This document shows positions 23,694 to 55,238 of a DNA stretch of 64,000 nt, piece by piece. Both the position numbers and the translations under genes were made by a program. How positions within the stretch are numbered: position 1 is the first letter of the stretch; each line of letters begins with the position of its first letter. The stretch is from IMG/VR virus record IMGVR_UViG_3300042484_002006; one strand, given 5' to 3'. The notes under the pieces are model-generated. The model saw only the letters and a program-made list of their open reading frames with translations. It did no database searches and had not been told where the DNA came from. This DNA is from a virus.

Positions 23694-23719
23694 ATATAGT
23701 TTTCATATTGGAGAGATAC

Positions 23720-35609: not shown

Positions 35610-35610
35610 T

Positions 35611-37206
35611 ATGTTAATAGTTAGCAGAGGTCAGTCGGTACAATTTAAATTTATATTTATTTCAGAAGGAAATATATATGACCCAACCGCCAATTCAACA
35701 CCAGTAGACATATATTTTTCTGTTATTAGAGGAGAGTATGGTAGCGGTCCAGTAATAGATGGTCCATATTCTTATCTAATTCAAGAAGAAAATCCTTCAG
35801 GACCTATTTATATTGAAAAAAGTAATTCTAAAGAATTTACTTTTTATTACCAAATTCCAGATAAATTATATGAGGGAATTTATTCTGTTATTGCACAAAC
35901 AACTAACTCCACTGGAAATTTAAACATAAGTGCAAAGTTTCAAGTTAAAGGTGAAGTATCGACTTTAAGTCCAATAGTTATTTCCCCAAATAAAAGTACC
36001 GTAGTAAACTATAAGCCAAGTTATGAACAGTTAAACTCAAATAATACTAGTACGATTTTATTAATTGGCCACGCAAATGGAATGGAATTTAATAACCCCG
36101 TTAATGTTAGGTCAATGCAAAGTGCTATTGATCTTCTTGGAGCAGATCTTTCTAGTCCTTTATTAAGAGGAGTATTTGACGCATACGCGGCTGGCGCCAG
36201 AGACATTATGATTTGTGCAACAGCTCCAATGTCAGAATATGTAGATAAATATTCAGATAGGAATACTTCCAATACTCTATTCGACAGAAATGCTGCCACA
36301 CCCAGCGAATATACTTTTTATGAAAGATATTACGAAAGATTAGAAGAAACATATTCAATAATTAAAGATTTAGATTTTATTGATATTATTGTTCCATTAG
36401 AAACTTCCATTATTAAAACAGGTGGAGTTGATTTTATAACTCAGTTAGCTGATTATTGCGCAGATTTTCATAATACAACCGGCTATGTACAAATTGGAGT
36501 AATAGGATCAAGAAGTGGTGGAGTAATATCTTCAGATATTGACCTGTTGGAAGCAAATTCTATTTTAACAGATAAATTAACCACTACAAATACGACTGGT
36601 CAAATCTCTTCAGATAATGGAAGATTTGTTATTCCAGTATATGGCGAAGCTGTGTATCAGCATGATCAAATAAAGACATCTTATGTTTCATCTATAGCAG
36701 CATCACTAGCTGGAATGTTGGCATCAAGACCTCTCAATATGGGTCTCATCAGAACAAGAATACCAGGAGCCATGTCTTTATATGGATCAGACTTATCTCA
36801 ATCCGAATACAAAAGATTAGATGATATAGGAGTTAATAGCATATATAGAGGTAAGAAGACTAGAAGATCCGTTCCATTTGAAGTTTATTTAACTAACGAA
36901 TACACACTTTCTCATCCAGAATCTACTTTGCATAAAGCAGCACAAATGAGACTTGTAGCTCTCCTAGTCAGTAGAATTAGAGGATATGGGTATAAGGCTA
37001 TTGGCCAACTCGGATATGATAAAGTTGTAGATGATGTAAGATCTTTATTAGAGTCTTTAAAGAGCGATAAAATTATAGTTAATTATTCTTTTAACATAGA
37101 AGTAAGTAGTACCACTGTTGGAAGTATAATATTCTACATAGAAGTTCTTTCTGCCCTAGGGTTAAAGAAAATTGACTTTGCTTTATCAACAGGACCAGGA
37201 GTTTAA
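35611..37206 (+). CDS. Second, divergent tail-sheath-like protein with N-terminal Ig-like domain
   Basis: DIIVP, QLADYC, IGVIG, ASLAGMLAS, YKRLDDIGVNSI and MRLV in sheath-domain order. Confidence 0.7.
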   Translation: MLIVSRGQSVQFKFIFISEGNIYDPTANSTPVDIYFSVIRGEYGSGPVIDGPYSYLIQEENPSGPIYIEKSNSKEFTFYYQIPDKLYEGIYSVIAQTTNSTGNLNISAKFQVKGEVSTLSPIVISPNKSTVVNYKPSYEQLNSNNTSTILLIGHANGMEFNNPVNVRSMQSAIDLLGADLSSPLLRGVFDAYAAGARDIMICATAPMSEYVDKYSDRNTSNTLFDRNAATPSEYTFYERYYERLEETYSIIKDLDFIDIIVPLETSIIKTGGVDFITQLADYCADFHNTTGYVQIGVIGSRSGGVISSDIDLLEANSILTDKLTTTNTTGQISSDNGRFVIPVYGEAVYQHDQIKTSYVSSIAASLAGMLASRPLNMGLIRTRIPGAMSLYGSDLSQSEYKRLDDIGVNSIYRGKKTRRSVPFEVYLTNEYTLSHPESTLHKAAQMRLVALLVSRIRGYGYKAIGQLGYDKVVDDVRSLLESLKSDKIIVNYSFNIEVSSTTVGSIIFYIEVLSALGLKKIDFALSTGPGV

Positions 37207-38217: not shown

Positions 38218-39489
38218 ATGGCTATACCTGGAGTAACAACCTTAATAAGAGATCGTTTTTACAGTGTGTCGAGACAAGATGCACCTGTTGGTCCGAGAAT
38301 TGTCACCATTGCAAAGCGCAGCACAGCTGACGGTACTGGTGGGGTCCCCGACCTTGACGTAGTTAGAGTATCGAACGAAGCTGATGCAATCACCGCATTC
38401 GGTAGTGGATCAGACGCACACCGTGCGTTTGTTGAATTGGTCACCGCTGGCGCTGAAAGAATTTTCATTGTCCCGCTTCCAAGTGATACAGTATTTGACC
38501 ACACACTATGTACAGTAACAAGTGCAACTTTTGGTGGATCTGTTTTTGATGCAGCCTTCATTGCAGCAGAATCAGCAGTCCCCGACATGATCATTCCTTG
38601 GGGTCGTGGCGCAGAAGCAAATGACTGGAACGCAAATGCTGCCACGCCTAGTGATGACAGAGAATATGGCTTCCACGCTGATAATAACAGCGCCTATGCA
38701 ACAAATTGGGCCTACAAAGTCGGAGTTGCCGTTAAGTCAATTTCAGAAAACACAAATCCCTGTTTAGGAATCATGGGCGTTAAGCCTTTCTTGGCAAGTA
38801 CGACTCTTGGTGGCACTAATACTAACGAAAGAATGACACCAAGTCAAACAGCGACAAAAATTGCCTTGTCAGGATTGCCAGACAGAGACGCAGGCGACGC
38901 CTGGAAGTCAGTCGGACCATACATTTCAATTATTGCCACTGAAATTAAGCCAGTTAATTACAAGTCGGGAACAACAGATTTTGGTTACTCAAATGGCGCA
39001 GCATTCTTGGCAGCTTCATTGAGCAGACTGCCTTCGTATAGTTCAGTGGTCAATAAACCACTTTATAATATCGAAGCTCTTCGTTACGCCCCCACAAGAA
39101 CTCAGCAGCAAGCCTTGAGTGCAAAGGGAGTTAATACTGTTGTTCTCAACTTTAATAAAGTAGCAGTATTTGGTGAAGGTTTGACATTCGGTCAGACAAC
39201 ATCAGACTACACGCGTTTGTCAACAAAAAGAATTGTTGACGAAGCTTCTCTTGTCATTAGACAAGTTTGCCAGAAGTTTATTGGTGAGCCATCGAACATT
39301 CAAGTTCGCAATGCGATGGAAACAGCAATTACTTCCGGTCTAAGAGGAATGCAGCTCATGGGTGCTTTATTGGGAAGCGATTTTACAGTTTCGTATGTTC
39401 CCAATCAGAATAAAGCGATTGTTGACCTCATTTTAACACCTGCCTTCGAACTTAAAACAATCGAAGTCCAGGTAGCCATTAACTTATAA
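38218..39489 (+). CDS. Major tail sheath protein
   Basis: MAIPGVTT, AITAFGSGS, LSAKGVNTV, RLSTKRIVD, FIGEP, LTPAFELKTIEV; GGAGG RBS. Confidence 0.9.
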   Translation: MAIPGVTTLIRDRFYSVSRQDAPVGPRIVTIAKRSTADGTGGVPDLDVVRVSNEADAITAFGSGSDAHRAFVELVTAGAERIFIVPLPSDTVFDHTLCTVTSATFGGSVFDAAFIAAESAVPDMIIPWGRGAEANDWNANAATPSDDREYGFHADNNSAYATNWAYKVGVAVKSISENTNPCLGIMGVKPFLASTTLGGTNTNERMTPSQTATKIALSGLPDRDAGDAWKSVGPYISIIATEIKPVNYKSGTTDFGYSNGAAFLAASLSRLPSYSSVVNKPLYNIEALRYAPTRTQQQALSAKGVNTVVLNFNKVAVFGEGLTFGQTTSDYTRLSTKRIVDEASLVIRQVCQKFIGEPSNIQVRNAMETAITSGLRGMQLMGALLGSDFTVSYVPNQNKAIVDLILTPAFELKTIEVQVAINL

Positions 39490-39514: not shown

Positions 39515-40192
39515 ATGGCAACTGAAGATTATACATCAGTAAATAAATACCTAAATACCTACACCACCTTCTCAGGTGCAGACATTGTAGCCACTTTTGG
39601 CGGAATTGAAATTGGTGCTCTTTCGGGCATTACTTTCTCTGTCACCAGAGAAAAAGCTCCCATTTATACAATGGGTTCACCTAATCCTCGTTCATTCTCA
39701 AGAGGCAAAAGAGGTATTGCAGGCTCATTGATTTTCACAGTTTTTGATCGCCCAGCGTTGTACACAATGTTGGACAAGAACCGTGCAAATGGTGACCCAA
39801 CACAGGTCTTCTACACAAGAAGTCATAATGCACTTCCTGGTGATACCGCTTACAAGTATCGCGGAATAGCTGATGTTAATGATCAGGCTCTCAGTGTTGT
39901 AAAGAAAGTTCCTTACTACGCTGACCAGATTCCTCCCTTTGATATTACTATCACATTTGTAAACGAGTATGGCCAAGCTGCCGTTAGATCAATCTACGGT
40001 GTTGAACTTTTGAACGAAGGTTCAGGCGCCTCGATGGATGACATCGTCATTGAAGAAACAATGACTTATGTTGCTCGTGAGCTCGGCCCGATGTACACAA
40101 TCAAAACAGATGGTCTCATCGACAACGCTGACGTCGATGCTCTTGACTTCATTCAGTCAAACGCTCTTAAGTCAGATATCATCAGACCCTGA
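39515..40192 (+). CDS. Major tail tube protein
   Basis: Follows the sheath; TFSGADIVA...ITFSVTREKAPIYTMG...RGIAGSLIF; GGAGG RBS; terminator downstream. Confidence 0.85.
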   Translation: MATEDYTSVNKYLNTYTTFSGADIVATFGGIEIGALSGITFSVTREKAPIYTMGSPNPRSFSRGKRGIAGSLIFTVFDRPALYTMLDKNRANGDPTQVFYTRSHNALPGDTAYKYRGIADVNDQALSVVKKVPYYADQIPPFDITITFVNEYGQAAVRSIYGVELLNEGSGASMDDIVIEETMTYVARELGPMYTIKTDGLIDNADVDALDFIQSNALKSDIIRP

Positions 40193-40216
40193 TAGAAACT
40201 ACTCTAGGTTGACAGG

Positions 40217-40254
40217 TGTGCACGGGGGATCTTCTCCCGTGCACATTTCATTTT
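40217..40254 (+). terminator. Intrinsic terminator after the tube gene
   Basis: TGTGCACGGGGGA-TCT-TCTCCCGTGCACA followed by TTTCATTTT. Confidence 0.85.
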
Positions 40255-40268
40255 AAGGATAATAAATA

Positions 40269-41003
40269 ATGACTAAAATTTTTACTGGAAAACCAAAAAT
40301 TATTGTTGAACCGCCACAAGACAGTGAACCTCGTGGTACTTACGATCCTAAATCTTCTTTTCAAAACATATCATTTTCAGGCGCAGATGCAGTAGCGACA
40401 ATGATTATACCAGTCATAGGGGAAGATGGAAAAATCACTAATGATGGCGATGTTATTGAACTAGGCGAACTGCAAACATTGTCATATTCAATACATAGAG
40501 AAAATTCGCCTATTAGAACTCTTGGACACGTAAATGTAAGAGGCTTCATTAAGGGTGGCAGAACAATAGCTGGAAGTTTAATATTTACCGTATTTAATGA
40601 GTATGCGTTCTATAAAATTAAAAAATATAGAGAACTACTCGCAAGAAGAAATGGTTTTTTTGCTCCTTTAGCAGACATGCTACCCCCATTTGATATAGTA
40701 ATTTCTTTCTTTAATGAATATGGTCAATCTGCCAAAATGAAGATATTCGGCATTACTATTGTAGATGAAGGTCAAACAATATCAATTGATGACTTAATTA
40801 CAGAACAGACATACACCTATATGGCTCGTGGAATTCAACCAATGGTTAAGATGGATATTAGTTCTGAACTAGACTCAACTAGAGATCCAGCAGTAGTCCA
40901 AAGAGATGTCCAAATATCTAGAAATATATTTGGTGATGAAGCAGTAGATAAAATATCTGAATTTTATAATCAAAATATGATAGAACGTATCGTGAGACAG
41001 TAG
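40269..41003 (+). CDS. Tail-tube paralogue 2
   Basis: SFSGADAVA...LSYSIHRENSPIRTLG...RTIAGSLIFTVFN...LPPFDIVISFFNEYGQ aligns with the major tube. Confidence 0.85.
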   Translation: MTKIFTGKPKIIVEPPQDSEPRGTYDPKSSFQNISFSGADAVATMIIPVIGEDGKITNDGDVIELGELQTLSYSIHRENSPIRTLGHVNVRGFIKGGRTIAGSLIFTVFNEYAFYKIKKYRELLARRNGFFAPLADMLPPFDIVISFFNEYGQSAKMKIFGITIVDEGQTISIDDLITEQTYTYMARGIQPMVKMDISSELDSTRDPAVVQRDVQISRNIFGDEAVDKISEFYNQNMIERIVRQ

Positions 41004-41009
41004 GTAATA

Positions 41010-41975
41010 ATGCCAGATCCAAGATTGGATAATAAAAAGTTTTGGAAATTTGATAAAGAATATGATCCATTATCAAATCACATAGATAGAGTCTGGGCCG
41101 GTAGAGCGCCAGATAATGATAAAACTTTTAATAATTACTATGATTATTACTTTAGTGGAGAAGATGTAAAAGTATACATTGATGGTCTTTTTGGGCCAGA
41201 AGACGAACTAGATATTGCCTCCTTTGCATACTCGGTAAGGCAAGAGAAGCAACCTGTCTACGGATTCTGGTCATACAATTATGATACCGTAATGCTGGGT
41301 TCTAGAATTATTAGTGGCGAAATAACTATATTTACTAGATATCCACGCAGAATGACAGAACTATTAGAGAAAGCAGCAAAGTCTCGAGTTACGAATAAAG
41401 ATGTTAGAACACCAAAAGACACAATTATTTCACGATTAGATTCACAACTTTCTTCAGATGATGAAAGTAACATAGAAAAATATTGGGCTTACAGTCAATT
41501 GGATAGAATAACTTCTGACCCAGCAGTTTCTGGATTTGACACTAAAAACCTATTCAGCGCACATCCACCATTTAATTTTGTTATCTTGTATGGATTAGAG
41601 GAAACAGCCCTAAGTCCATTTAGCGCAAATGCGTCTGAAGATACAAGTACTTCTAGTTATTTGAATAACCAAATGTCCTTTGATGTTAACCAAAGAAGTA
41701 TTAAAATGGATAATAAAGTCAGCCCAATGAAAATAATACTCCAGCAAGTCAACTTAATGAATATGTCAACCAACTATAGCCCAGGTGGGCAACCCGTTGC
41801 CGAGAGCTATCAATTTATAGCTAGAGATTTTTATTTTACTGAAGCAAAACTTGATTTCATAAAAGGAATGTCTGCAAATAATATTTCAGATTCTGACGCA
41901 CCATCTAACGCTAATCCTGGCTCGCCCACGCAGGAGCAGGTAATGGGTGATCCAAACACAAGTTATAATGGTTAA
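41010..41975 (+). CDS. Tail-tube paralogue 3 (more divergent)
   Basis: YFSGEDVKV...FAYSVRQEKQPVYGF...RIISGEITIF...HPPFNFVI. Confidence 0.75.
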   Translation: MPDPRLDNKKFWKFDKEYDPLSNHIDRVWAGRAPDNDKTFNNYYDYYFSGEDVKVYIDGLFGPEDELDIASFAYSVRQEKQPVYGFWSYNYDTVMLGSRIISGEITIFTRYPRRMTELLEKAAKSRVTNKDVRTPKDTIISRLDSQLSSDDESNIEKYWAYSQLDRITSDPAVSGFDTKNLFSAHPPFNFVILYGLEETALSPFSANASEDTSTSSYLNNQMSFDVNQRSIKMDNKVSPMKIILQQVNLMNMSTNYSPGGQPVAESYQFIARDFYFTEAKLDFIKGMSANNISDSDAPSNANPGSPTQEQVMGDPNTSYNG

Positions 41976-43245: not shown

Positions 43246-46200
43246 TTGATACGCGATCCAGGACCAATACAAAACTTAGGGTATGGCGTAACATCTAGAG
43301 ACTTGCCCGCTACTGAGGGCGAATCTGATGGCGTAGCGCCAAACTCAGGTATGGTAAGCCGTGCCTTAAATGGGCACCCCATTACAAGGTTCTTGGCCTC
43401 AACTGCATCTGTCATGGTTGCCGCAGGAGTCGCATCTAAGTTAACTAAAAAGGGTGGACTAAAGCTAGGAAAATTCCTACAAAAATCTGCTGACTCAGGC
43501 AATGGGGTTTCAACAAGAGTAGTGCAAAGCGCTCTTCAAATTCGCCGTCAATTAGACGAGCTACAAGGCGTCAGCAGGTATGTCGACAGTGGCGAAGATT
43601 TATACAGTAAATTAGTTGCGTATGATAATTCTGGAAAATTAACTACAGGTTATCATGGAATGGTCAGTGAAAGAGCTGGGTATCAATATCTAACCAAAGA
43701 AGAAAAGAACCTCGCAGGATCTGGATTCCTGACTGAACCTACAGCAGTTTGGTCCTATAAAGACCAACTACAGCAAAGGTTAGTTAGAGCTGGACGCAGA
43801 ATGCCGTATGAATTGCCAGCAATGTACGGCGCAGAAAAAGCAATTGTTGATCCACTTTTCGGTAATCGTGAAGAAGGACAAAGAAAAATAAAATGGTATA
43901 ATCCAGCAGACGTAATTACTGATTTTACTAAATCGTCCTTGACAATGATGGCGACAATGATTGCTCCATTCGAAGCTCTTGGAGCTGCAGCAGGAGCTGG
44001 TAAAAGTTCATTAAATAATCTTCGTTATTCAATGAATGATATGCGAAATCTAACTCCATTTAATAAAAAAGTACGCAAAGGGTTTGTTGATATAACAGAA
44101 ACTTTAGCAGATGTTGGTCACGACTTCGCTACACTAACTAATAAGTTTTTAAGAACTTCAGCGCAGACTTCTGGCGGACTAAGCGTTGCCACAAAAGCTT
44201 ATACGGAAAATCAACAAGGATTTGTACAAAATCTTCACAGCTTAAGACATGGCGTTAAAGCAGCACGCGATCAACAAATTGCCCAAGGAGCATCTAAGGA
44301 AGCTATTAGAAAAGCTGGCTCAGGTGCTTTCCTTAAGGGATTTACGGATTCATCTGGAAATACTTCATCTGGAATTACAGAACTTCCTCCAGTTTTTAGG
44401 GGCCTAAGAAAGGCTTTTGTTGCCGGTAAAGATGAATACAAAATTCTCGGCAAGGGATATGATGCCCTAGAGAATTCAATTGCACACTCCAGAGTATTGA
44501 AGGCAATGGGAGGTACCCCCGAACATGCACAAACGCTACAAAACGCAATGCAAAGAATTCAATCGCAACACTCCAGTAGATTATCTAGTTTTGCCACTGG
44601 TGTTAGGGTCATGGGAGGCGGAGGTCCAGGAGACTCAGCGGTTACTAGATCTGCATTTGGTTATGGCCATCAACACGACGCATTTAAGGATCTATTAGAA
44701 AATCAATTAATTTCACGAGGCTTAGAAGGAAAACAAGCTAAGCAATTTACCGACTATCTCAAAGTATCATTGCCTAAGCAGAATATGCACAGCACCAATA
44801 TAATAACTATTGGTAAAACTAAGATATATGAAGATGGTGCGGACGCAGTAGATCTAAGCGATGACTTTTTTGCAAAAATAATTAAAAGATATCGTGGAAT
44901 TTCTGGTGGAAAAAGTTTTGATGATGTAATTAAACCTGATGCACTTAGAGCTTCAGTCGAAGACGCAAGAGATATCTTTGCATCAAAAGAATTTCAAAAA
45001 GGTTTAAATAATAAAATACAAAAGAATTGGAATAAATTCTATAGAGATGATTTAACCACCGTTGGTGGCGGAATGCTCAAGCCGATGAAGGCTTCCTACA
45101 ATGATTTTATTGGCCCACAAACAGCAGCTAAAACGGAATTCCTACAAAGAAAAACAGCTCAGACTCTAGGTATCAAATTAACAGACGATGCCGGAAGGCA
45201 AGTATCTAATGACGTTATTGCCGGAGGCTTAAGAAATCGTGGTTTTGACCCCAATGCGTTTACTGATCTAAGAGCATTTTTAATTAAGAATCGTCAAATG
45301 TCTTCTGGTGTTATTGGCGGAGGATACAACTTATTTGGAATGAAGTCCCTAACAATTGACGAGGCTCGTCAGTCTGGGCGCTTCACGCACATGAGGCCAG
45401 ATGAACAAAAAATAATTCATGACTTAGCTTCACGAATGGCCATTAATGATCCAGTTTCTAAATCAATTGGATTCAGTAAACTTGATGGAGTATATCAATC
45501 TAGATCAGGTCAAATATTAGATTTTACATCAGTTAAATCTACGTTCACTAAAACGGCAAACTTTTTTGCTTCAGAATTTAAAATTCCTATATTAGGTTTT
45601 AATCCAGCTGACTTATTTGGTTATAGATCATTCTCAGAAATGGCCAACAGATCCCCATTGCAGTATGTTTCTTCTAGAACCGTACAGCCATTTATGCCCG
45701 AAGGAGCTCAGAGCAAAGCAGACTTCCATATGTGGTTTAAGACCAAGGGCACTAAGGGTAAATTGATGTCTTTTAGGACGGACAATCTGTCTGACGCAGT
45801 CCATAGTACAGTGATGAATGGTACATATAGAGCACTTCCAACTAACACTACAGACTTACTCACTAGACACACGCGCTACGCATCAAATATGCAGGGCGAA
45901 ACAATTAATGAGATCAGAGATTCAAGTGGTTCAAAATTCCTAGATAGAATTCTTGGCGGAGAAAGAGCAATACGTTTCAAGAGAAAAATGAGTATTGACT
46001 CTGAACAGCCAAACTCTTTATTTAGTTTAGCTTCTAGATTTAAAGGTCGTTCAAGTGATGTAAATAATCATGGAGTTATGTCTCGATTATTATCTGGGGA
46101 AGATGTCAAATATAATTCTGGTGGCAAAGAAAAAATAATAAAATTATCCGTAGGACAGAATAAAGAAATTGGTGTAGTAGATAATTTTGGAAATATAGTA

Positions 46201-49200
46201 GATGATTTTGCAGAAGCAGATATTCTAAGAGGATATCAATCCTTAAGAAAAGAAGCTTTCCAATATGGGACTCCAACTAAACTTATCAAAGAATTAGAAA
46301 CTAGCAGGCCAGATTTATTTACATTTGGTGGAAAAAAAGTTAGTGAAGCAGTTACTGAAGTTCAAGCTGTGCAATTTGCCGAAGAACTTTTAGCAGCACA
46401 AAAGTTAACATCTCAACAATTAAGAGCTCAGGGTATAGATCCGACTTTCTTGAGTTCCTCTGCATCAAGAATTAAGTACTTAATGCAAGAAACTAATCTA
46501 AATGCAATATCTCAAATGGCTGAAAAGTCTCCAACTATTACAACTAGATTAGATCAATTAAAAAATGAAATATTTAGATACGTTTCACAAACCAACCAAA
46601 TGCAACTTGGAGGCGGAAGTTCTGCAGACATATTTATTGAGATGCAAACTGCTATTAATAAAATGGTTAAAAGTGGAGCAATTAGTTCCTCAGAAAGAGT
46701 TGAAGCTCAAGCTGCAGCTCTATCGAGCATGTTTAATATCAGCGCATTTAAAACTTTTCAACACTCAGCGTCAAATATCCAGAATGCTCGCGCGGGCGCA
46801 GCAGAAATGTTCGGTCTTTCAACTCAAAATCCTAGTCTAAAAAATGTCTTTGATCCTTTTTCAAAGGCTGAAGTAAACCAAATTAGTAGTGGTATTCGTA
46901 AAAAATTCGCACCAGCACTTTCGCTAAGGCAAAGAGCTTTTGGAACTTCAGGCTATAAGGTTGATGATTTAGCTGTTGACCCATTAGGTTCTGGACAAAG
47001 TATCACAGTAGTGCCAACTTTCGGAACGGTGTTTGGCAGAGATCCAATGGGAGCCATTAAGAGCGCAATTGGCTTGACAACTTATTCAGATCCACAGAGT
47101 TTTTCTATGGGCAGCGTTCCTATCTCGCAAGGTGTAGAAAGATTAAATAGATATTTTGGCACTTTGGGTGGTCAATTAAACGTATCAGATTTTAAAGGTC
47201 CATTAGATCTTTTTGCTAGAGGAATGGTTGGCAAGCGAGTATTACCATTATATGCAACCGGTGTGACAGCTTTGACTATAGATCGAACGTTGGGTGGAGC
47301 CGTTAACGGTAAGGATGATAACGGAGAAAGAATTTATTCTCCACTAGTCCTTGGCCAAGTGGCTAAAGGAGCAGTTGAACTACAATCATTATCTGCAGGT
47401 ATAGCTCCTGGTGGAATGAGCTATGAAGAAAAGAAAGAGCAGTTAACCGAAGGTGAAGTTCCAATCAGGCAGGGTAGATGGTGGCCACTTGGAAATACCC
47501 CATTTAAGGGCGGAAAAATTCAGTATTACAGACCTTCTTGGTATCGTAAACTCCAAGCAGGAGCAATGTTTACCAGTGACACCTATGGAAGTCCAGCTGA
47601 AAAATTCTTATACTATAACGACATTTCACCACTAAGACCTTTTGACCCATATAGATTTGAACGTAAACACTATGAGGATAGGCCATATCCCGTTACTGGT
47701 GAATATTTCTCTGGTCCATTTGGTCCGCTCGTGCCCCTTGCTAATATGACAGTCGGAAAGCTCTTAAAGCCCCAAGTTCGAATGCATGAAAACGAAACTG
47801 CACAAGGTTTAGCAAACTACGTTAGGGCTGGACAATCAGGTGCCTACGACGCTTCTGCCTATGGGCAAACTCCAAGTTATGTCAATGGATTGGGCTTCAC
47901 TAGAGAAATGGGCGGAGGAGGCTCTGGAGGGGCCATAGGAGGCCTTGGAATGATGGGTGGAGGTGCACCTACCCCTGGATCTATCGGAGGCGCAGCAGCA
48001 GTTTCTGGAATGAACTCAATGCTAGCCAGTAGAGCAGGTAGCACGGGCGCTGCAGGATCAATGGTTAGGTCTTCACTAAAAGATATAAACTCTCAATACA
48101 GCGATTTGTCCTATGGTCCGCCCAGGGTGCCTGGTGTAATGGCTCCCAGAATAGTTGGAGCTGGAGCTCCGTTGGAGCCCAGTACTAGTTCTTTCCAGGC
48201 AGGTGAGCTTGGATTTAGAATGCAAGAAATGGCAGGTATCTACGGGTTTGCTTTTGCTAATGCAAGAAAGACATTGGGATTTGGGCAAGCAGATTATCAG
48301 CCACAAAGAAGTGTTTTACAATCAGCATCAAAAGCCTATGGAACTACTAGAGCATTCTGGGATCTTAACTTAGGAGGCTTGGGAGACGCTCCGTTAGGAA
48401 ATAAAGAAGGCGTAGGTAACTTTGAATTTTCTGAAATTGTTAGACGATTCATTCCAAAAGAAAGAACTAATGTTGATTATTTAAATCCAATAGAAAATAC
48501 TATGGGAAAGAAATATCCATTCCTTCCTGGGTCTGAATATTTTACAGACTTCACTAGAGGGGATCCATTTACAAAGGTTCAAGAAGGTGAATTAAGACTA
48601 CCCGGAGTTGGTTACGAAAGATTTAATAGACTTAACCCAGATTCAACTGGTCGATATGGAGCGTTGGATCAACTTAAAATATTGGGTGATGTTGCGCCTT
48701 ACTCACAACAATATAAAATATTAGATAAAAAAATTGACAGCATGAATTTAGGTCCAGCCGAAAGAAACCAAGTAGCTGATATTAGATCTCAAGTTCAAAG
48801 TATGACAACTAAAAATGAATTCACAGATTACAAATATAAAGGATCTTCTGCCGAAGAAATGGGGCAACATCCATTGAAGTTTGGCGCAGGAAGAATGGGA
48901 GAATATCTAGCTCACTCTGACAACTTTGTTGTGAGCAAGACAATAGGCAAGAGGACTGCTACTGAAGATTGGGAAAGAAAACATGTCTACGGCGCCACTT
49001 TCCCAGAATGGCAAAGACCATTTGAAAGTTATATTCAGCCAATGATTAATAAAGCCACACAAAGAGATCCAATAACGGCAGCAGCCGGACTTGGTGTAGC
49101 TGGAGCACTATTTGGAAGAACAGCTAAAGCTAAATTGTTTGGAACAGCAATTGGCGTAGCGACTGGATTAACTGCATCTGCATATGGGCAAACTTCAGAA

Positions 49201-49887
49201 TTAGTAACCGGTGAAAGATTCGTGCCAGCAAAAAGAAAGAAAGAATTAGCACTCGAAGAGTACTCTGATATTTTAAGCTACGTAAAAAGCAAAAGATTAG
49301 AAACTATGGCTAAAGCTTCTGGCGATGGAAAAGCAGCGATGCAATATAATATGGCTGCAAAAAGAACAATGTATGGAGCTGATCTTTATGGGAAAGATAT
49401 CGATACATTATCTTTAGCTATCCCTAAAAGAAAAAGAGAACACTTCAAAGCAATGATTAATGCCCCAGAAGAAGAAAGAGGTAAAATACTTTCTACTGCG
49501 GGACGACTTGAAAGAAGAATCTACGAAGCTTCTTGGGGGATGGATGTTGAGAAGAGACCAGATTTAGGAGAATATTTTACTCGTCATGAACTTCCAGATT
49601 TATCATGGGAAGGTTGGCATCCTAATACCAATATGGATCAAGTAAAGATTAAAATGGGACAATCAATGGGTCTAGAAATGTCGCAGATGGGTTACTATCC
49701 TCAACAGATCCGTGAAGCAAATTTAGCTAATCCAAGCTTTCCTCAATTTGGGAATGGTGGAGATAGACAAGATACTTTATATAAATTGCGCGGACTAATG
49801 AATGGTTCTGGATTTTCTGGAAGTGTTACTCCAGTTATGAATCCTTTTGGCTCACAGGGTATTGACGTTTCGGCAGGAGTTAGATAA
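43246..49887 (+). CDS. Tape-measure-like / ejected virion protein (2213 aa)
   Basis: Position after the chaperones; size; Ala/Gly-rich helical regions with hydrophobic segments; TTG start with AAGGAG RBS. Confidence 0.7.
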   Translation: MIRDPGPIQNLGYGVTSRDLPATEGESDGVAPNSGMVSRALNGHPITRFLASTASVMVAAGVASKLTKKGGLKLGKFLQKSADSGNGVSTRVVQSALQIRRQLDELQGVSRYVDSGEDLYSKLVAYDNSGKLTTGYHGMVSERAGYQYLTKEEKNLAGSGFLTEPTAVWSYKDQLQQRLVRAGRRMPYELPAMYGAEKAIVDPLFGNREEGQRKIKWYNPADVITDFTKSSLTMMATMIAPFEALGAAAGAGKSSLNNLRYSMNDMRNLTPFNKKVRKGFVDITETLADVGHDFATLTNKFLRTSAQTSGGLSVATKAYTENQQGFVQNLHSLRHGVKAARDQQIAQGASKEAIRKAGSGAFLKGFTDSSGNTSSGITELPPVFRGLRKAFVAGKDEYKILGKGYDALENSIAHSRVLKAMGGTPEHAQTLQNAMQRIQSQHSSRLSSFATGVRVMGGGGPGDSAVTRSAFGYGHQHDAFKDLLENQLISRGLEGKQAKQFTDYLKVSLPKQNMHSTNIITIGKTKIYEDGADAVDLSDDFFAKIIKRYRGISGGKSFDDVIKPDALRASVEDARDIFASKEFQKGLNNKIQKNWNKFYRDDLTTVGGGMLKPMKASYNDFIGPQTAAKTEFLQRKTAQTLGIKLTDDAGRQVSNDVIAGGLRNRGFDPNAFTDLRAFLIKNRQMSSGVIGGGYNLFGMKSLTIDEARQSGRFTHMRPDEQKIIHDLASRMAINDPVSKSIGFSKLDGVYQSRSGQILDFTSVKSTFTKTANFFASEFKIPILGFNPADLFGYRSFSEMANRSPLQYVSSRTVQPFMPEGAQSKADFHMWFKTKGTKGKLMSFRTDNLSDAVHSTVMNGTYRALPTNTTDLLTRHTRYASNMQGETINEIRDSSGSKFLDRILGGERAIRFKRKMSIDSEQPNSLFSLASRFKGRSSDVNNHGVMSRLLSGEDVKYNSGGKEKIIKLSVGQNKEIGVVDNFGNIVDDFAEADILRGYQSLRKEAFQYGTPTKLIKELETSRPDLFTFGGKKVSEAVTEVQAVQFAEELLAAQKLTSQQLRAQGIDPTFLSSSASRIKYLMQETNLNAISQMAEKSPTITTRLDQLKNEIFRYVSQTNQMQLGGGSSADIFIEMQTAINKMVKSGAISSSERVEAQAAALSSMFNISAFKTFQHSASNIQNARAGAAEMFGLSTQNPSLKNVFDPFSKAEVNQISSGIRKKFAPALSLRQRAFGTSGYKVDDLAVDPLGSGQSITVVPTFGTVFGRDPMGAIKSAIGLTTYSDPQSFSMGSVPISQGVERLNRYFGTLGGQLNVSDFKGPLDLFARGMVGKRVLPLYATGVTALTIDRTLGGAVNGKDDNGERIYSPLVLGQVAKGAVELQSLSAGIAPGGMSYEEKKEQLTEGEVPIRQGRWWPLGNTPFKGGKIQYYRPSWYRKLQAGAMFTSDTYGSPAEKFLYYNDISPLRPFDPYRFERKHYEDRPYPVTGEYFSGPFGPLVPLANMTVGKLLKPQVRMHENETAQGLANYVRAGQSGAYDASAYGQTPSYVNGLGFTREMGGGGSGGAIGGLGMMGGGAPTPGSIGGAAAVSGMNSMLASRAGSTGAAGSMVRSSLKDINSQYSDLSYGPPRVPGVMAPRIVGAGAPLEPSTSSFQAGELGFRMQEMAGIYGFAFANARKTLGFGQADYQPQRSVLQSASKAYGTTRAFWDLNLGGLGDAPLGNKEGVGNFEFSEIVRRFIPKERTNVDYLNPIENTMGKKYPFLPGSEYFTDFTRGDPFTKVQEGELRLPGVGYERFNRLNPDSTGRYGALDQLKILGDVAPYSQQYKILDKKIDSMNLGPAERNQVADIRSQVQSMTTKNEFTDYKYKGSSAEEMGQHPLKFGAGRMGEYLAHSDNFVVSKTIGKRTATEDWERKHVYGATFPEWQRPFESYIQPMINKATQRDPITAAAGLGVAGALFGRTAKAKLFGTAIGVATGLTASAYGQTSELVTGERFVPAKRKKELALEEYSDILSYVKSKRLETMAKASGDGKAAMQYNMAAKRTMYGADLYGKDIDTLSLAIPKRKREHFKAMINAPEEERGKILSTAGRLERRIYEASWGMDVEKRPDLGEYFTRHELPDLSWEGWHPNTNMDQVKIKMGQSMGLEMSQMGYYPQQIREANLANPSFPQFGNGGDRQDTLYKLRGLMNGSGFSGSVTPVMNPFGSQGIDVSAGVR

Positions 49888-52800
49888 TGGTAAATATTAA
49901 TGAGATGTATAAAACACTGCCACAAAGAATGGCGGCTGCTAGATCAGCATTAATGAGAACTACCTATGGAATGGGTGGTGTTATAAAAATAGAGCCAGAT
50001 GGCGATGAAATTAAATATGTATTAACCGCTACTGGTGAAAGTTTTAAAAATGTTGATAGAGCATTTAATGCAGCTGCTTCACTTCATGTTACACAGGTTA
50101 ACCCACTCCTAAAACCAAAACTAGGAAATAAAGTTAGTGGTATGGCTGAGATCATGGAGGATATCAGAGGAAAAGCAAGCAATTTTAATGCTGGCCAAAT
50201 TCAAATGTTACAAAATGCAGGTATTGACGTAAATGCGATAAAAGATATGCAGGTTGACCTCCTAACCATGCACGCTGATAAGGGAGGCGTAAAAGGAGTA
50301 GCCAGCAGAATCCAAACACTAAGAGACCGTGGAACTTTGCATGGTATTACGATAATGGATGATGAAGGCGCACGAATGTTGAATATGCGTGTAGGCCAAA
50401 AAATGCTAACGAGCTACCAATCAAACTTACTCCTTTCAATTACTGGTCACGACATGTTAGATCCAGAATTATTCTCAGCCATTATGGGCAAGGGCACTTC
50501 TCCATCAGAATCTTTAATTAAACAATTAATGAAAGTTGGAAAAAGATTCAGATCATTAGCATCTGAAAGAGAAGTCTCTTTAGCAGGAAATGATCTAGCT
50601 AGTTTTATTGGTGGAAAGCTGAAAGCAGAGGACTTTCATAAATCAATGTTAGTAGTAGATCCTCAATATGAGCTACTGCAGAAGATGGCTCACGGGAGCG
50701 CCTATGACTTTGGCGGAGGAAAAAAGGGAGCAGAATTAGCCGCCTATTACAAAAATGCAGAAGCTGAAGATTTTATTGGCAGCATAATGGGGAAACTATC
50801 TACTAACGAACAAGACGAATTAAAAAATGTAATTAAATCAGGTAATTTTACTTATGGGGGACGAGGAAAATTTGCTAGCGATCAATTAATGACACATTTA
50901 AAAGATAATTTTATTACAGTTAATGGTGTAGTTGATCAAAATCGAGAAAAAATTGTTAAAGAAATGTTTGATAATATCGAATATGCGTATGATGGTTCTG
51001 ATTTAATAAATTCAAAAAATATAGATGGCTATATTAAAAATATGCAAAAAAGAGCAAGTAGGATAAGAAAGCAAATCGACGATTCGCAGAAAGGTATTAG
51101 GCCACTGACAGCAGAAAAAATGGAAGAACTTGCTATGGAACTAAAAGATGTAAGTAACATCGAAAGACAAGTTTCTCGTGCTAAGAATACAGGTGGGCTG
51201 GAACAATTTACTGGTAGAGGTCACAGCGAAAAATATGGAGATATTAAAACAGCTTTCCAGTCAGTAGAATTTGATCCTAAATTAAATAAGTACTCAATGA
51301 TTGTTAGCAAGATGGGATTCAAAGGCGAACTTGGTCTAGCTGGTGAAAGTAACATACTTAACTTAAGCGGAATGGGAGCAGGGCGCGATTTAGTCTACGC
51401 TGACCCAGTATCAACAGCTTTTCATCCAGAAATTTTTGCTGATCCAGATACGATTAAGGCAATGGAAAAAAGATCTCAGGCTATCCTTCAAGAATTTGAA
51501 GGAGCCATTAAGAGCGGAACGGTTCCTAAGCGAGTAAGAGCAATGTTGGAACAGGCAGCAGAACGTGACATAAGTCATCTGCCCTCGTATGCTCGTGGAT
51601 CAGCACAGAGAAATAGGGAATTTGCAAAAGCTATTACGGATATGATAAATAGAGGAATTAGCCCTAATCAAAATCCAACTATGATGAATATGATGCATAC
51701 GTTCTTTGCAACAGAGGCATTCCGAGAAAAAGGCAATTTTGTTCAAGCTGTTCTTCCTGATACTTATCGCTTTGCTATTGATAGTGAAGCAGTCCTCATG
51801 GGAACTAAAAAAGGAAAAATGCTACTCAACAAGGGTAGAGGTTACGAAAAGATATCTATGTCTGGCCTAAATGCCGCACAAGAAGCAGCATTAGCAAGTC
51901 AAGACATTCTAAAGTTCAGAGTAAGTGGACATAAGATGATGTTGTCAGCGGATGCTATTGGTCAGTTTAGGCACGCCCTTGGTGGATTTGACTTAGACGA
52001 CAAGGCACTACCTAAGCTTTTGACATATGAACAAAAAATAGCAGATGGTCAAGGTGGATTTAGAACAGTAAATAGATTAGGATTTAATATTTTCAGACAA
52101 CCATCTGGTCCTGAAGAATTAATTTTTGCTCGCATGAATATGGATCAAGAAACTATTAGAGGATTATTTGGTGGAGGAGATGATGTCTTTGCAGTAAAAC
52201 ATTTTAGGGACGCACTAGATCATCTGCAATCTACGACTACTCCCAAAGACGAATTGCATAAGACCTATTCTAATCTACAAAATATTTTAGATAAAAAACA
52301 TTTAAAATTAGATAAATCAGGCAATGTCATAAAAGATAAATACGGCAAAGCAATGGAAGCCGAATTATCTCCAAAATACTTTCAAGAATATGAACAAGCA
52401 ATTTATAATGTTTTTGAAAGATTAGAGGCTGATGGAGTGACCCAACTCCAAAGAATGTCACCAGAAATGGCTGCCAAAATCGCTCAGTATGGATCTTCTT
52501 CATTGAAAACATCTGAGTTAGCGTTTGAGCCTAGATATACTAGAGAAGGAGTATTTAAAGCATTTACTAAAGAAGGTGCTTTTGATATGAGTGAAGAATT
52601 ATTATCTACAATGCGAGCTAATAATGTTGACCAGGCGACAATTAATAAATTATCAAGAGCAAAAAACTTTGACGAAATGCTCAACCTAATGCAAGCAGAT
52701 TATAAAAGTAATCCAGCAGTACGAGCAGCATTTGCAAGCTCAATCGAAGAACTTGGCATAAAAAAGAGCATTGAAGGTGCAGATATTCTTGGTCTATATG

Positions 52801-54782
52801 TGAATAGATCAATGGCTGTGGGTTCTTCATTGAATCAATATGAAGCTTTTTTAAATGACGCAGGGACATCTTCTGCAGTTAAAAAATACATGTTAGAAAA
52901 CTATAAAATTGGTTTACTTTCGCAAGAAACAGCCATTGACCTTTCGGTCAACCTTGCGGGCACAAAACAATTAATGGGAAATGTTACGGAGCTGCTTGCT
53001 AACTTAACCGCATCAGACGCTAGCATGTATAATGAAAAAGGAATACAAAAAGCGCTAGGAGAGTTAGGGATTGCTGGCGCTGGACAAAAGGGCATGACAC
53101 TAGCTGGCTTTGGAGAACAAAGTATGGCTAATCTTGGAAAAATGATTGGATTTAATCGCGCCGTTGGTTCTGCCCAGGATGATCTCCAATTAGGTATTGA
53201 TGAATTCTTATTGCGTGAAAGAATTAAAGGTAGCGATACTAAAATTATTCTAGATAATATGATCCAAGGAATGCGAGATGCGCAAACTGCAGGACACGCA
53301 TCTCAAGTAGATTTAGATGAAACAATCAAGCAACTTCAAGCACTTTCTGCTAGCAATGATGAAGGTAAAATAAAGGAAGAATTAATAAAAAGAATTGGCC
53401 TAGGCGCAGACCACAAGTATGCCTCAATATCTAAAGTTCATGATGTGGGTGTCAGATATCAAGCTTACCTAGATAAAGTAAGAAGAGCCTCGATATCCCG
53501 AATGCCAGCAGATGACATATTATCCTCAACATCTACCTCCGCTGAAGCAGATTCTCTTGCCAGAAGAATTATTGCAACGCATAAAGATTCTCTAGAGCAA
53601 ATTTTTAGTGTTACAACTGATGAACTAAAATTAATGAGTGAGCCTGAAAAATTCAAGCACGCGGCTATGTTAGACAATGTTGGAGAAAATGTATTGCGCA
53701 CTATTGGTCAGGCATCGCAGTTAGAAAACATTAATGCGCTAGATCTTATCACCGCCATAGATAAACAAACGCTTGGCGCAGGTTCAAGAATAGATGTTGG
53801 AGGTCTAAGATATTTGAGCTCAGCTTTCGATGGCAATATGCCACAAGAGGTTTCGCAAGTAGCTGAAATGATTACAAGTGCTAGAGACTATAGAAGAATA
53901 AAATTCTATGAAAGCTTCGATCAAGACTACGCTAACCAGGTCCAAGCAAGCTTGGGTAATAAAAATACTATGAATGAAATTACAGAAGAAGCCCAAAGAA
54001 GACTAAAACTTGTTAGTGAAGCTCAGGAAAGAATAGATAATGGTACGAACAGCATGTTTGATATTTTCGAAGCAACCAACGAACAAAATGATGTACTAAG
54101 AGCCTTAGTGGGTGAGTCAGATCAGATTGCTGATGAAATGGTCAGGGAAAATTCTAATCACCAAGCAACCCTTATACAGCACCAAATGAGAAGAAGAGAA
54201 TTAGAAGATGCCGGACTCATAAGTCCAACTGGACAAGATGGCGTGCTAGAAAAGGGTGGGACTATAATAGACTCACAACAAGCACAGGCTGCTTTTGGTG
54301 ATGATTATAATTTAACGGATGACATTATTAGATCTGTTAATGACTTAGATAATGGATTAGTGGAGAATAAAGCTGTATATAAAAGAATAGGCGAAAAAAT
54401 GGGAGATCTTAAAGATCTTTTTAAAAACCCCACTATCAGGAAAAGTACCCTAGCATTAGGCGCTCTTATAATGGGAAGCTTCGCCTACACAGCGATTAGG
54501 GACAGGACTCATGAAGATATGACAGGACCTCCCCTATTGCCAGGTGGATCAGCCTATGAAAGCGGTTTTCCAAATCGAGTTCCCGAAATTGGCACTTTTG
54601 GTGGACCAGGTTATGATCCTGGCGTTAGCTATAAGGTAAATCTATATGGAGACCAAGACACCGTAAGAAGATTTAATGCTGCTGCCGGAGGGTTAGTTAA
54701 TGGCAATATTAACACTACTATGTATAATAGAATCCCCGATGTGGCTCAAGATCCATATACAAGAATGGCAGCCAATTATTAA
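49887..54782 (+). CDS. Putative single-chain two-barrel (YonO/crAss/QDE-1-class) RNA polymerase-like virion protein with C-terminal hydrophobic helix (1631 aa)
   Basis: Ordered motifs YDGSDLINS (D369), TGR...DIKTAF (R444/K454), IVSKMGFK (K479), YRFAIDS, GGFDLDD (702-705), FRQP (R737), LGLYVN (G969/N973), QETAID (D1018). Confidence 0.65.
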   Translation: MVNINEMYKTLPQRMAAARSALMRTTYGMGGVIKIEPDGDEIKYVLTATGESFKNVDRAFNAAASLHVTQVNPLLKPKLGNKVSGMAEIMEDIRGKASNFNAGQIQMLQNAGIDVNAIKDMQVDLLTMHADKGGVKGVASRIQTLRDRGTLHGITIMDDEGARMLNMRVGQKMLTSYQSNLLLSITGHDMLDPELFSAIMGKGTSPSESLIKQLMKVGKRFRSLASEREVSLAGNDLASFIGGKLKAEDFHKSMLVVDPQYELLQKMAHGSAYDFGGGKKGAELAAYYKNAEAEDFIGSIMGKLSTNEQDELKNVIKSGNFTYGGRGKFASDQLMTHLKDNFITVNGVVDQNREKIVKEMFDNIEYAYDGSDLINSKNIDGYIKNMQKRASRIRKQIDDSQKGIRPLTAEKMEELAMELKDVSNIERQVSRAKNTGGLEQFTGRGHSEKYGDIKTAFQSVEFDPKLNKYSMIVSKMGFKGELGLAGESNILNLSGMGAGRDLVYADPVSTAFHPEIFADPDTIKAMEKRSQAILQEFEGAIKSGTVPKRVRAMLEQAAERDISHLPSYARGSAQRNREFAKAITDMINRGISPNQNPTMMNMMHTFFATEAFREKGNFVQAVLPDTYRFAIDSEAVLMGTKKGKMLLNKGRGYEKISMSGLNAAQEAALASQDILKFRVSGHKMMLSADAIGQFRHALGGFDLDDKALPKLLTYEQKIADGQGGFRTVNRLGFNIFRQPSGPEELIFARMNMDQETIRGLFGGGDDVFAVKHFRDALDHLQSTTTPKDELHKTYSNLQNILDKKHLKLDKSGNVIKDKYGKAMEAELSPKYFQEYEQAIYNVFERLEADGVTQLQRMSPEMAAKIAQYGSSSLKTSELAFEPRYTREGVFKAFTKEGAFDMSEELLSTMRANNVDQATINKLSRAKNFDEMLNLMQADYKSNPAVRAAFASSIEELGIKKSIEGADILGLYVNRSMAVGSSLNQYEAFLNDAGTSSAVKKYMLENYKIGLLSQETAIDLSVNLAGTKQLMGNVTELLANLTASDASMYNEKGIQKALGELGIAGAGQKGMTLAGFGEQSMANLGKMIGFNRAVGSAQDDLQLGIDEFLLRERIKGSDTKIILDNMIQGMRDAQTAGHASQVDLDETIKQLQALSASNDEGKIKEELIKRIGLGADHKYASISKVHDVGVRYQAYLDKVRRASISRMPADDILSSTSTSAEADSLARRIIATHKDSLEQIFSVTTDELKLMSEPEKFKHAAMLDNVGENVLRTIGQASQLENINALDLITAIDKQTLGAGSRIDVGGLRYLSSAFDGNMPQEVSQVAEMITSARDYRRIKFYESFDQDYANQVQASLGNKNTMNEITEEAQRRLKLVSEAQERIDNGTNSMFDIFEATNEQNDVLRALVGESDQIADEMVRENSNHQATLIQHQMRRRELEDAGLISPTGQDGVLEKGGTIIDSQQAQAAFGDDYNLTDDIIRSVNDLDNGLVENKAVYKRIGEKMGDLKDLFKNPTIRKSTLALGALIMGSFAYTAIRDRTHEDMTGPPLLPGGSAYESGFPNRVPEIGTFGGPGYDPGVSYKVNLYGDQDTVRRFNAAAGGLVNGNINTTMYNRIPDVAQDPYTRMAANY

Positions 54783-54794
54783 GGTTAGGTATTT

Positions 54795-55238
54795 ATGATT
54801 TTTGGTGCAGGCGATCAGAACAAAAGGCTTAGTAGCGCAGCTGGTCGTCCCAAAGATACATCTCATAGGAAAGAAAATTCGAATACCTACTCAGCCAAGA
54901 TTTCTTCTAGTAAGTCTTCTGTGGCTAAAACCGTCGGTGAATCAAAAGTCACTGTTAGAAAATCTAATTCAGATAAGCTAAGAGGCTCATACGAAGGTTT
55001 GCAACACAGCTCTTCTACTGTCTTACAGATGAATGGTGTGGGATATGATAATAAGTCCCTGCAAAACGCGCGTTATAACAAAAATCAAATATCTCATAAT
55101 AATCATAGGTTTAACTTTAATATGTCACCTGTTGATAAAAATTATAGTATAATGGATAATTACAGTTCTATGTCTGCGACTGGATCATCTAGCAATAAAA
55201 TTAGCAATATAGTTAAAAATAATATGATGTTTAAATAG
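54795..55238 (+). CDS. Basic Ser/Asn/Lys-rich low-complexity protein (147 aa)
   Basis: ORF track; AGGT RBS. Confidence 0.65.
   Translation: MIFGAGDQNKRLSSAAGRPKDTSHRKENSNTYSAKISSSKSSVAKTVGESKVTVRKSNSDKLRGSYEGLQHSSSTVLQMNGVGYDNKSLQNARYNKNQISHNNHRFNFNMSPVDKNYSIMDNYSSMSATGSSSNKISNIVKNNMMFK

Follow-up and report, generated by a model that had tools for sequence, protein, structure and literature searches.

Introduction

Two-barrel polymerases transcribe all cellular genomes. Some phages deliver an RNA polymerase (RNAP) from the virion, as is the case for gp66 of crAss-like phages and the vRNAP of N4, which transcribe the first phage genes. In the Thermus phage P23-45, the virion RNAP gp96 is fused to the tape-measure protein (TMP) and transcribes the pre-early genes (PMC10770324). 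The motif DxDxD is treated as the universal signature of two-barrel polymerases, and it has been used to find cryptic viral RNAPs (PMC10770324). Here, we analyzed a 1631-amino-acid (aa) open reading frame (ORF) in the tail module of a 64,000-nucleotide (nt) stretch of DNA, IMG/VR virus record IMGVR_UViG_3300042484_002006, the whole of which is referred to as the window. A first-pass annotation made from the sequence had proposed that this ORF encodes a highly diverged, virion-packaged RNAP of the single-chain two-barrel type, and had correctly cited P23-45 as the precedent for an RNAP fused to a tape measure (PMC10770324). We place at roughly 0.6 the probability that the 1631-aa protein is a very diverged single-chain two-barrel (double-psi beta-barrel) polymerase, probably carried in the virion and delivered to transcribe the first phage genes.

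Among the closest known systems, gp96 of P23-45 is a virion RNAP, while gp64 of P23-45 and gp62 of P74-26 are non-virion enzymes (PDB 8H2M, 8H2N, 8F5M). Like gp96 and gp64, the 1631-aa protein has the first-barrel motif Q-x-R...K-[GT]-x5-[DH]-P; like gp96, it is associated with a tail module and a tape measure; and like the P23-45 RNAPs, it is without detectable sequence similarity to cellular RNAPs. Unlike gp96, which forms the N-terminus of the TMP, it is encoded by a separate gene downstream of a TMP-like gene, and unlike the siphovirus P23-45, its virus has sheath genes (myovirus type). Its putative metal loop reads DLDD, in contrast to DFDGD or DYDGD in P23-45-type RNAPs, the R-x-P found upstream of the loop in gp96 (FRNP) and gp64 (RRP) is missing, and no second, non-virion paralogue was found.

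The best structural matches are Neurospora QDE-1 and plant RDR2 (PDB 2J7N, 7Y7P, 7W84, 7ROZ), RNA-dependent RNA polymerases (RdRPs) that are eukaryotic and dimeric, function in RNA interference and share about 10% sequence identity with the 1631-aa protein in the structural alignment. QDE-1 has DYDGD and an upstream R962-S-P964, neither of which is found here. Finally, phi14:2 gp66 (PDB 6VR4), a single-chain two-barrel RNAP of giant size that is delivered from the virion, has its gene among those for giant structural proteins, a placement shared by the gene under study. Its profile alignment with the 1631-aa protein is colinear, with key residues paired, but by sequence the signal does not exceed that of a control between families (P 0.04 vs. 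0.03). In addition, gp66 has 2180 aa, DFDID and YRIP and belongs to a podovirus-like crAss phage, whereas the protein described here has 1631 aa and DLDD and is found in a virus with sheath genes.

Conservation within an undescribed protein family

Translation of the window sequence shows that the 1631-aa ORF is open throughout (Table 1). All eleven peptides quoted in the first-pass annotation were found at the residues given for them, namely: AYDGSDLINSK (aa 367-377), QFTGR (440-444), GDIKTAFQSVEF (451-462), YSMIVSKMGFK (469-479), AVLPDTYRFAIDS (621-633), LLNKG (646-650), KMMLS (683-687), GGFDLDD (699-705), GFNIFRQPSGPEE (732-744), ILGLYVNRS (967-975) and LLSQETAID (1010-1018).

At least 97 metagenomic homologues were retrieved in a word-indexed search, and an exhaustive HMMER scan yielded 151 homologue clusters at 50% identity. 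Homologues are present on 112 confirmed IMG/VR stretches, with contigs of up to 216 kb, and carry no informative name. The protein has no match in Pfam, PHROGs or the PDB by sequence and by profile, and five of its distant homologues gave nothing in Pfam. A tblastn search of 50,697 cultured-phage records (INPHARED) returned no relative. There is also none in 185,579 bacterial and archaeal genomes, which indicates that the gene is not a prophage or host gene. A literature search found no paper describing the family; it is undescribed, and its members come only from uncultured tailed phages, on contigs of about 100-216 kb, here from lake water.

The family alignment comprises 189 sequences, the most distant of which are about 23% identical to the window protein. 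Within the core (aa 340-1050), conservation reaches 93% or above at no more than about two dozen positions. The positions with 93-100% conservation are K216, K219, R220, R228, D369, G370, R444, G445, K454 and K479 in the N-terminal part and first barrel; G495, D506, G590, R628, F677, L698, G699, F701, D702, D704 and D705 further on, up to the Asp loop; and R737, P739, E744, G969, N973, D1018, D1105 and a C-terminal GPPLLPGG..YE block thereafter. GG-x-D-x-D-D is present in every member covering the region, with the three Asp 100% conserved and D702-x-D704-D705 invariant in 188/188 sequences, while Q440, R444, K454 and K479 are conserved at 90-99% or above. The residues singled out in the first-pass annotation coincide almost exactly with the positions of 97-100% conservation and make up nearly all of the highly conserved core positions, and the conservation it had predicted for D702/D704/D705, R737, K454 and K479 is borne out. 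Because the invariant positions coincide with the residues chosen beforehand, the motif pattern is more than chance. The invariant residues are the charged ones that one would expect in an active site.

Predicted fold and structural matches

Two regions were modelled: aa 321-1080 (760 residues; 41-sequence alignment; predicted local distance difference test score (pLDDT) 77, predicted template modelling score (pTM) 0.78) and the core, aa 436-765 (330 residues; 53-sequence alignment; pLDDT 89.2, pTM 0.81). The core model was compared exhaustively, and independently of Foldseek, with 48,161 PDB representatives using VIA-align. The best five of these all belong to the single-chain two-barrel polymerases, the clade of QDE-1, YonO, crAss gp66 and P23-45 gp96-gp64, in the following order: QDE-1 7y7p_A (6.2, 4.8, 217; model 1-278 on QDE-1 730-1019), P74-26 gp62 8f5m_A (5.3, 5.1, 177; model 1-299 on gp62 127-347), maize RDR2 7w84_A (5.3, 4.0, 206; model 1-280 on RDR2 571-842), P23-45 gp96 8h2m_A (4.9, 3.7, 126; model 1-281 on gp96 525-795) and P23-45 gp96 8h2n_A (4.9, 4.1, 128; model 1-310 on gp96 525-812). 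This search was decisive by its ranking, not by absolute score. The structural alignments cover both barrels and the connector between them (QDE-1 730-1019/1024; gp96 525-795). The best matches to QDE-1 and RDR2 take in 206-220 residues when the 330-residue core is compared, and 295-368 with the 760-residue model; in the latter, aa 359 onward aligns to QDE-1 702 onward, reaching QDE-1 1136-1146. Kinship of fold between the 1631-aa protein and the single-chain two-barrel polymerases is thus held with considerable confidence.

In the core model, the second barrel includes a long beta-hairpin (aa 706-738), and the Asp loop is preceded by a hairpin and a short helix and followed by a strand, in agreement with the helix-loop-strand arrangement described earlier for GGFDLDD. 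In the 760-residue model, the helical hairpin at aa 376-435 dominates the non-specific fold matches.

Three uncharacterised proteins in BFVD labelled ‘uncultured Caudovirales phage’ (A0A6J5NTF7, A0A6J5M9G6 and A0A6J5MEC6) match the 760-residue model with Foldseek E values of 1e-7 to 1e-6 at 10-17% identity, and may represent additional lineages of this polymerase-like superfamily. Fragments from crAss-phage in BFVD also matched this model, with weak scores.

Residue correspondence with known polymerases

The structural residue correspondence was derived from alignment ranges, not from coordinates. In three of the structural alignments, model residue 1 is the starting point, opposite residue 730 of QDE-1, 525 of gp96 and 127 of gp62. 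If the first eight residues are ungapped, R444 (model residue 9) is matched to R738 in QDE-1 and to R533 in gp96; gp64 R134, which is the Arg of the gp62-type enzymes, is then no more than one residue away. The alignments end 8-15 residues past the Asp loops, with model residues 278-281 on QDE-1 1019-1024 and gp96 795. This places DLDD (model residues 267-270) at about QDE-1 1008-1011 and gp96 781-784, beside D1007/1009/1011 of QDE-1 and DFDGD (779-783) of gp96.

Conserved basic residues of the beta-like barrel are a feature of the two-barrel clade, and are present here as Q440, R444, K454 and K479. In RNA polymerase II (Pol II), the basic residues K979 and K987 of Rpb2 hold the RNA 3' end and the nucleoside triphosphate (NTP). 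The spacing between K454 and K479 is 25 residues, compared to 24 between K743 and K767 of QDE-1. In the latter enzyme, Q736, R738, K743 and K767 of the first barrel hold product and NTP, D709 assists the binding of metal B, and D1007, D1009 and D1011 bind metals (PMC9508822). The probable equivalences with QDE-1 are D369 with D709, Q440/R444 with Q736/R738, K454 with K743, K479 with K767, the two Asp loops with each other, and A-I-D1018 with V1115-D1116. There is also a local likeness of sequence, in that QFTGRG..IKTAFQSVEFDP (or QFTGRG...GDIKTAFQSVEFDP) resembles VQVRGE..LKGTVIVDP of gp96 (GLKGTVIVDP) and AQVRMF..WKGVIVTHP of gp64 (AWKGVIVTHP).

For comparison by profile, 41 sequences around phi14:2 gp66 aa 900-1700 were used to build a crAss vRNAP profile. 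Against it, hhalign gave P 0.043 with a score of 27 for the 188-sequence core, aligned colinearly over 545 columns, and a P of 0.018 when the 330-aa core was used, while the positive control, the gp66 family against the gp64 family, gave P 0.03 (score 28). Since the control itself reaches only P 0.03, sequence profiles cannot prove kinship even among accepted members, and by this measure the family behaves like an accepted two-barrel member. The alignment pairs D369 with the invariant gp66 D962, K454 with the invariant K1012 (PLKGVY), F677-R678 with Y1321-R1322 of the YRIP Pro-gate, and G700-F701-D702-L703-D704-[D705]-K706 with D1361-F1362-D1363-I-D1365-K1366. Invariant residues fall on invariant residues 11 times, against 4.1 expected. 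Single sequences of gp66, gp64 and gp96 gave no signal in hhalign, and the thin gp64 family profile (5 sequences) gave no sensible alignment. The order of the elements is the same as in QDE-1, gp66 and gp96, as the first-pass annotation had claimed.

A non-canonical form of the putative catalytic loop and Pro-gate

Two of the defining motifs listed in the first-pass annotation are not canonical here. GGFDLDD lies at the aligned position of DYDGD, DFDGD and DFDID, but the canonical DxDxD is absent and the loop is DxDD. Two registers are possible on the alignments: by hhalign, the first Asp would be replaced by Gly700 and an extra Asp added after the third; in the frame set by QDE-1 G1005-x-D1007, D702 would be the first Asp and D704 the second, with Lys706 at the third site and D705 substituting. 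RQP (aa 737-739) does not qualify as the canonical R-x-P, lying 32 residues after D705 and not before the Asp loop. The Pro-gate of QDE-1, R962-S-P964, lies 43-45 residues before the Asp loop (PMC9508822), and across the clade the R-x-P is found about 35-45 residues upstream of the loop and reads FRNP in gp96, RRP in gp64 and YRIP in gp66. R678 (FRVSGH) aligns with R1322 of the gp66 YRIP but without the Pro, and either R678 or R628 may supply the Pro-gate arginine. In QDE-1 and Pol II, the Asp loop and Pro-gate sense the sugar and the minor groove (PMC9508822). Given the failure of the DxDxD and R-x-P tests, we class the protein as a divergent two-barrel polymerase that is a member of no described family.

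Downstream of these motifs, G969 and N973 are invariant and A-I-D1018 is 99% conserved. The region is modelled as two helices (residues 647-669 and 693-702 of the 760-residue model), with lower pLDDT there. The trigger loop of QDE-1 spans 1102-1136, with V1115/D1116, and the alignment of the 760-residue model extends past it; hhalign puts D1018 on a non-conserved gp66 residue. On the model, it is plausible that the helix at aa 967-989 and A-I-D1018 are the bridge helix and trigger loop.

Gene order and the search for other polymerases in relatives

The first-pass annotation had coupled the ORF to the TMP-like gene upstream, and this association is upheld at two levels. In the window, the TAA of the upstream gene (49885-49887) overlaps the ATG of the ORF (49887-49889) as TAATG, with AGGAG at 49875-49879, seven bases 5' of the ATG; the same one-base stop/start overlap is present in related loci (locus coordinates). 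Furthermore, all sampled IMG/VR loci share a conserved block that encodes, in order, proteins of about 175, 208 and 2200 aa, the homologue itself (about 1560-1750 aa), a protein of about 150 aa and a giant hub of more than 3000 aa, and this gene order is kept family-wide, down to 23% identity. The upstream gene is called a tape measure because of its position and length conservation, which are the sole grounds for the name; its product is mostly 2188-2231 aa long, a length as tightly kept as expected of a length ruler, and has no Pfam or PHROG family. It is this 2213-aa gene, not the 1631-aa ORF, that sits in the canonical TMP slot, and the 1631-aa protein has no TMP family match in Pfam or PHROG.

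In five complete or near-complete relatives (193-210 kb), the Rpb1/Rpb2 Pfam families had no match, and neither a sigma-70 family member nor a paralogue of the 1631-aa protein was found. A back-translated scan of these five for a canonical D[FY]DxD polymerase gave chance-level matches, three of which were inspected and are not polymerases. The T7-type RNAP Pfam search was blank in four relatives and in its control, and is hence uninformative. The 1631-aa ORF is the only RNA-polymerase-like gene detectable in the complete relatives.

Proposed function and alternative explanations

According to our proposal, the core (aa ~360-1030) would follow the canonical order, from the acidic residue D369 through the helical hairpin to a beta-like barrel bearing Q440, R444, K454 and K479 as the basic residues that bind product and NTP, then the helical connector and a beta'-like barrel with the acidic metal loop D702, D704 and D705. 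The long helix and A-I-D motif that follow would probably be the bridge helix and trigger loop. The catalytic loop would be re-registered as GGFDLDDK, with DxDD in place of DxDxD, and the upstream R-x-P would be replaced by the invariant RQP...E after the hairpin that follows the Asp loop. The protein would be made late, built into the virion, delivered with the DNA, and would transcribe the first phage genes. Late synthesis, packaging and delivery are probable because the gene belongs to the late tail module and its translation is coupled to that of the TMP-like gene; by the logic set by P23-45 gp96 and crAss gp66, a polymerase from a late tail operon can act early only if it is carried in the particle. 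What we observe, i.e. the conservation, the kinship of fold and the synteny, is the ground from which we infer catalysis, the type of template and product, packaging and ejection. Catalytic activity appears probable, while the full scenario of early transcription from the virion is only slightly favoured. The most detailed version is tentative, with slightly less than an even chance: an active, virion-delivered two-barrel RNAP family of contractile-tailed freshwater phages of about 200 kb, in which the Asp triad has shifted to G-F-D-x-D-D-K (first Asp lost, new one added), the Pro-gate has moved to the post-loop hairpin, and the C-terminal module loads the enzyme beside the tape measure.

Several results weigh against a virion-carried two-barrel polymerase. 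In support of the two-barrel fold as first proposed are the best five VIA-align matches, with both barrels and the connector spanned, but Foldseek against the PDB was not significant: the 760-residue model had no match with E below 0.001, QDE-1 and RDR2 recurring at E 0.2-1 in 700-column alignments, and the 330-residue core had no polymerase among its best 50. A shape search of the ESM Atlas gave nothing above a template modelling (TM) score of 0.34, and gp66 (6VR4) is not among the structural matches listed. No family member has DxDxD (188/188 have DxDD), and there is no R-x-P upstream of the Asp loop. Sequence alone would prove nothing, with hhalign P values of about 0.02-0.04 that are no better than the positive control. 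Furthermore, a folded polymerase core may not fit the lumen of a tail tube.

Among the alternatives, the one that best survives is that the fold is a two-barrel fold and active, but that the enzyme is not a DNA-dependent transcriptase of early genes: it could be RNA-dependent or primer-synthesising, with a QDE-1-like dual activity, act on the incoming genome in the manner of a primase, or polymerise DNA as archaeal PolD does. The closest structures are indeed RdRPs (QDE-1 and RDR2) and not DNA-dependent enzymes, and with both the Asp loop and the Pro-gate rearranged, the substrate choice could differ. However, the DNA-dependent gp96 and gp62/gp64 are also among the best five matches (activity: PMC10770324), a gene of the late tail module best fits a delivered early transcriptase, and the relatives have no other RNAP that we could find. 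We therefore regard a non-transcriptase as improbable.

Somewhat less probable still is a role in tail structure or ejection, in which the protein would be either tape-measure-like or cargo of the inner tube, and its core an inactive relic or a domain for another chemistry, e.g. cell-wall or membrane penetration. Double-psi barrels are also present in lytic transglycosylases. In its favour are the location of the gene between the TMP-like one and the hub, the non-canonical catalytic signature, and a hydrophobic segment in the conserved C-terminal module. In a feature search of the ESM Atlas, the language-model neighbours of the protein were weak and TMP-like (0.81-0.85), with tape-measure clusters at only 0.81-0.83, which is below the reliable range. 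On the other hand, three Asp as well as R, K, K, D and N are 100% conserved even among sequences as distant as about 23% identity, which favours catalysis; Pfam and the structural matches brought up no transglycosylase, 3D-domain or other hydrolase; and the matches span both polymerase barrels and the connector, not one barrel. Mere coincidence, i.e. a mixed alpha/beta domain whose AlphaFold model superposes weakly on polymerases, would agree with the Foldseek results and the non-significant hhalign scores, but is very improbable given a confident model (pLDDT 89) whose best 5/5 matches among 48,161 chains come from one rare superfamily, with three alignments starting in the same register relative to the conserved Arg, three ending just past the Asp loop, and hhalign independently pairing the same residues.

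Should the protein be an active, virion-delivered two-barrel RNAP, it would be the first known member of its superfamily that functions without DxDxD, and also the first such enzyme in the tail module of a myovirus. A large and conserved family that retains the fold and the basic residues, but has DxDD and a displaced R-x-P, would broaden the sequence space known for the catalytic centre, and motif-based searches would be missing real two-barrel members. The strategy of an RNAP that travels with the tape measure, known from one lineage of Thermus siphoviruses, would extend to widespread contractile-tailed lake phages, and would explain how infection starts in phages that show no other RNAP or sigma factor.

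C-terminal module and split relatives

The N-terminal domain (aa 1-340) and the C-terminal module have no family match in Pfam, the latter bears no likeness to the upstream protein, and a simple hydropathy scan of the 1631-aa protein showed no strong transmembrane segment. In some relatives (L076, L066, L015 and L033), the C-terminal module is a separate ORF that overlaps the end of the polymerase ORF, with 1356 + 412 aa in L076 (8732-13991; 50-nt overlap) and 1045 + 472 aa in L066. Either a frameshift site or a modular split could account for this arrangement, and the occurrence of split genes in several relatives indicates that the polymerase part and the C-terminal module are separable. In L053 and L069, from two independent samples, the homologue is in four pieces. 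The TMP-like, polymerase-like and hub genes of these two loci (about 3200-24900, locus coordinates) are each divided into 4-5 ORFs in different frames, identically in the two assemblies. Reading TGA as Trp (code 4) does not rejoin the split genes of L053, and the fragmentation may be a genuine splitting into subunits or a shared error.

Genomic setting and other observations

The window is part of the genome of an uncultured tailed phage from lake water, a jumbo-type myophage, with a G+C content of 37.9%, and its DNA was detected in at least 20 lake or freshwater metagenome runs; no RNA run is listed among the sequencing runs containing it. The features of the gene and its surroundings are given in Table 1.

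Table 1. Positions of the 1631-aa ORF, its predicted parts and the neighbouring genes in the window.
Feature	Coordinates	Strand	Basis or remark
Terminase	12723-14579
Portal	23708-25378
Major capsid protein	28971-30029
Two sheath-like genes	35587-37206 and 38218-39489
Three tandem tube-like paralogues (225, 244, 321 aa)	39515-41975		directly after sheath gene
Two small genes (182 and 207 aa)	between tube-like paralogues and 43246
Tape-measure-like gene (2213 aa)	43246..49887	+	position and length conservation
TAATG stop/start overlap with the upstream 2213-aa gene	49885..49889	+	sequence
Whole gene (1631 aa): N-terminal domain, two-barrel polymerase-like core, helical C-terminal half, conserved C-terminal module	49887..54782	+
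N-terminal domain (aa 1-340)	49887..50906	+	invariant K216, K219, R220, R228
D369-G370	50991..50996	+	invariant; candidate first-barrel acidic residue, QDE-1 D709 equivalent
Long helical hairpin (aa 376-435), inserted before first barrel strands	51012..51191	+	760-aa model secondary structure
First (beta-like) barrel (aa 440-505): Q440, R444, K454, K479	51204..51401	+	core model strands 6-12, 16-22, 55-59
Helical connector between barrels (aa 507-610)	51405..51716	+	invariant D506-P507 just before; G590
Second (beta'-like) barrel (aa 612-750): R628, F677-R678, Asp loop, RQP...E744	51720..52136	+
GGFDLDDK (aa 699-706), putative metal-binding loop	51981..52004	+	D702, D704, D705 100% conserved
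R737-Q-P739...E744, after long hairpin following Asp loop	52095..52118	+	100% conserved
Long helix (aa 967-989; G969, N973, R974, Q984) and A-I-D1018	52785..52940	+	candidate bridge helix and trigger-loop motif
C-terminal module: moderately hydrophobic segment (~aa 1519-1537), then GPPLLPGGSAYE...Y...G...T.Y...P	54441..54779	+	second part near-invariant
147-aa gene	54795-55238	+	directly downstream of the 1631-aa ORF
Giant hub-like gene (>2917 aa)	55248 to beyond 64000	+	~3700 aa in relative L001

A segment of the giant ORF starting at 55248 (its aa 1450-1707) matches phrog_20474 ‘endolysin’, and this ORF is probably a baseplate hub with a cell-wall-degrading domain. The tube-like paralogues match phrog_9206, which carries the label ‘major head protein’; their position points to the tail tube. 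Upstream, a 713-aa ORF (18811-20952) opens with three tandem 51-nt coding repeats (18820-18972).

A promoter search of the window found sigma-70-like sites at chance level and no recurrent motif. Intergenic repeats lie among small minus-strand ORFs at 417-800 and 1298-1700, with CCTCGAGTTTAGAAA occurring twice and TTCTCAAAAAAATTT at 1508 and 1547; neither recurs elsewhere in the window. At a divergent gene boundary (3280-3387), a C-rich run (CCCCCCCTTCCCCCCTTCCCCCC) precedes an exact 25-nt AT-rich direct repeat in two copies (CTTATATGTTWAYATATAATAATAT at 3317 and 3345) and an inverted copy that overlaps (0 expected by chance), and this region could be an origin or another regulatory region.

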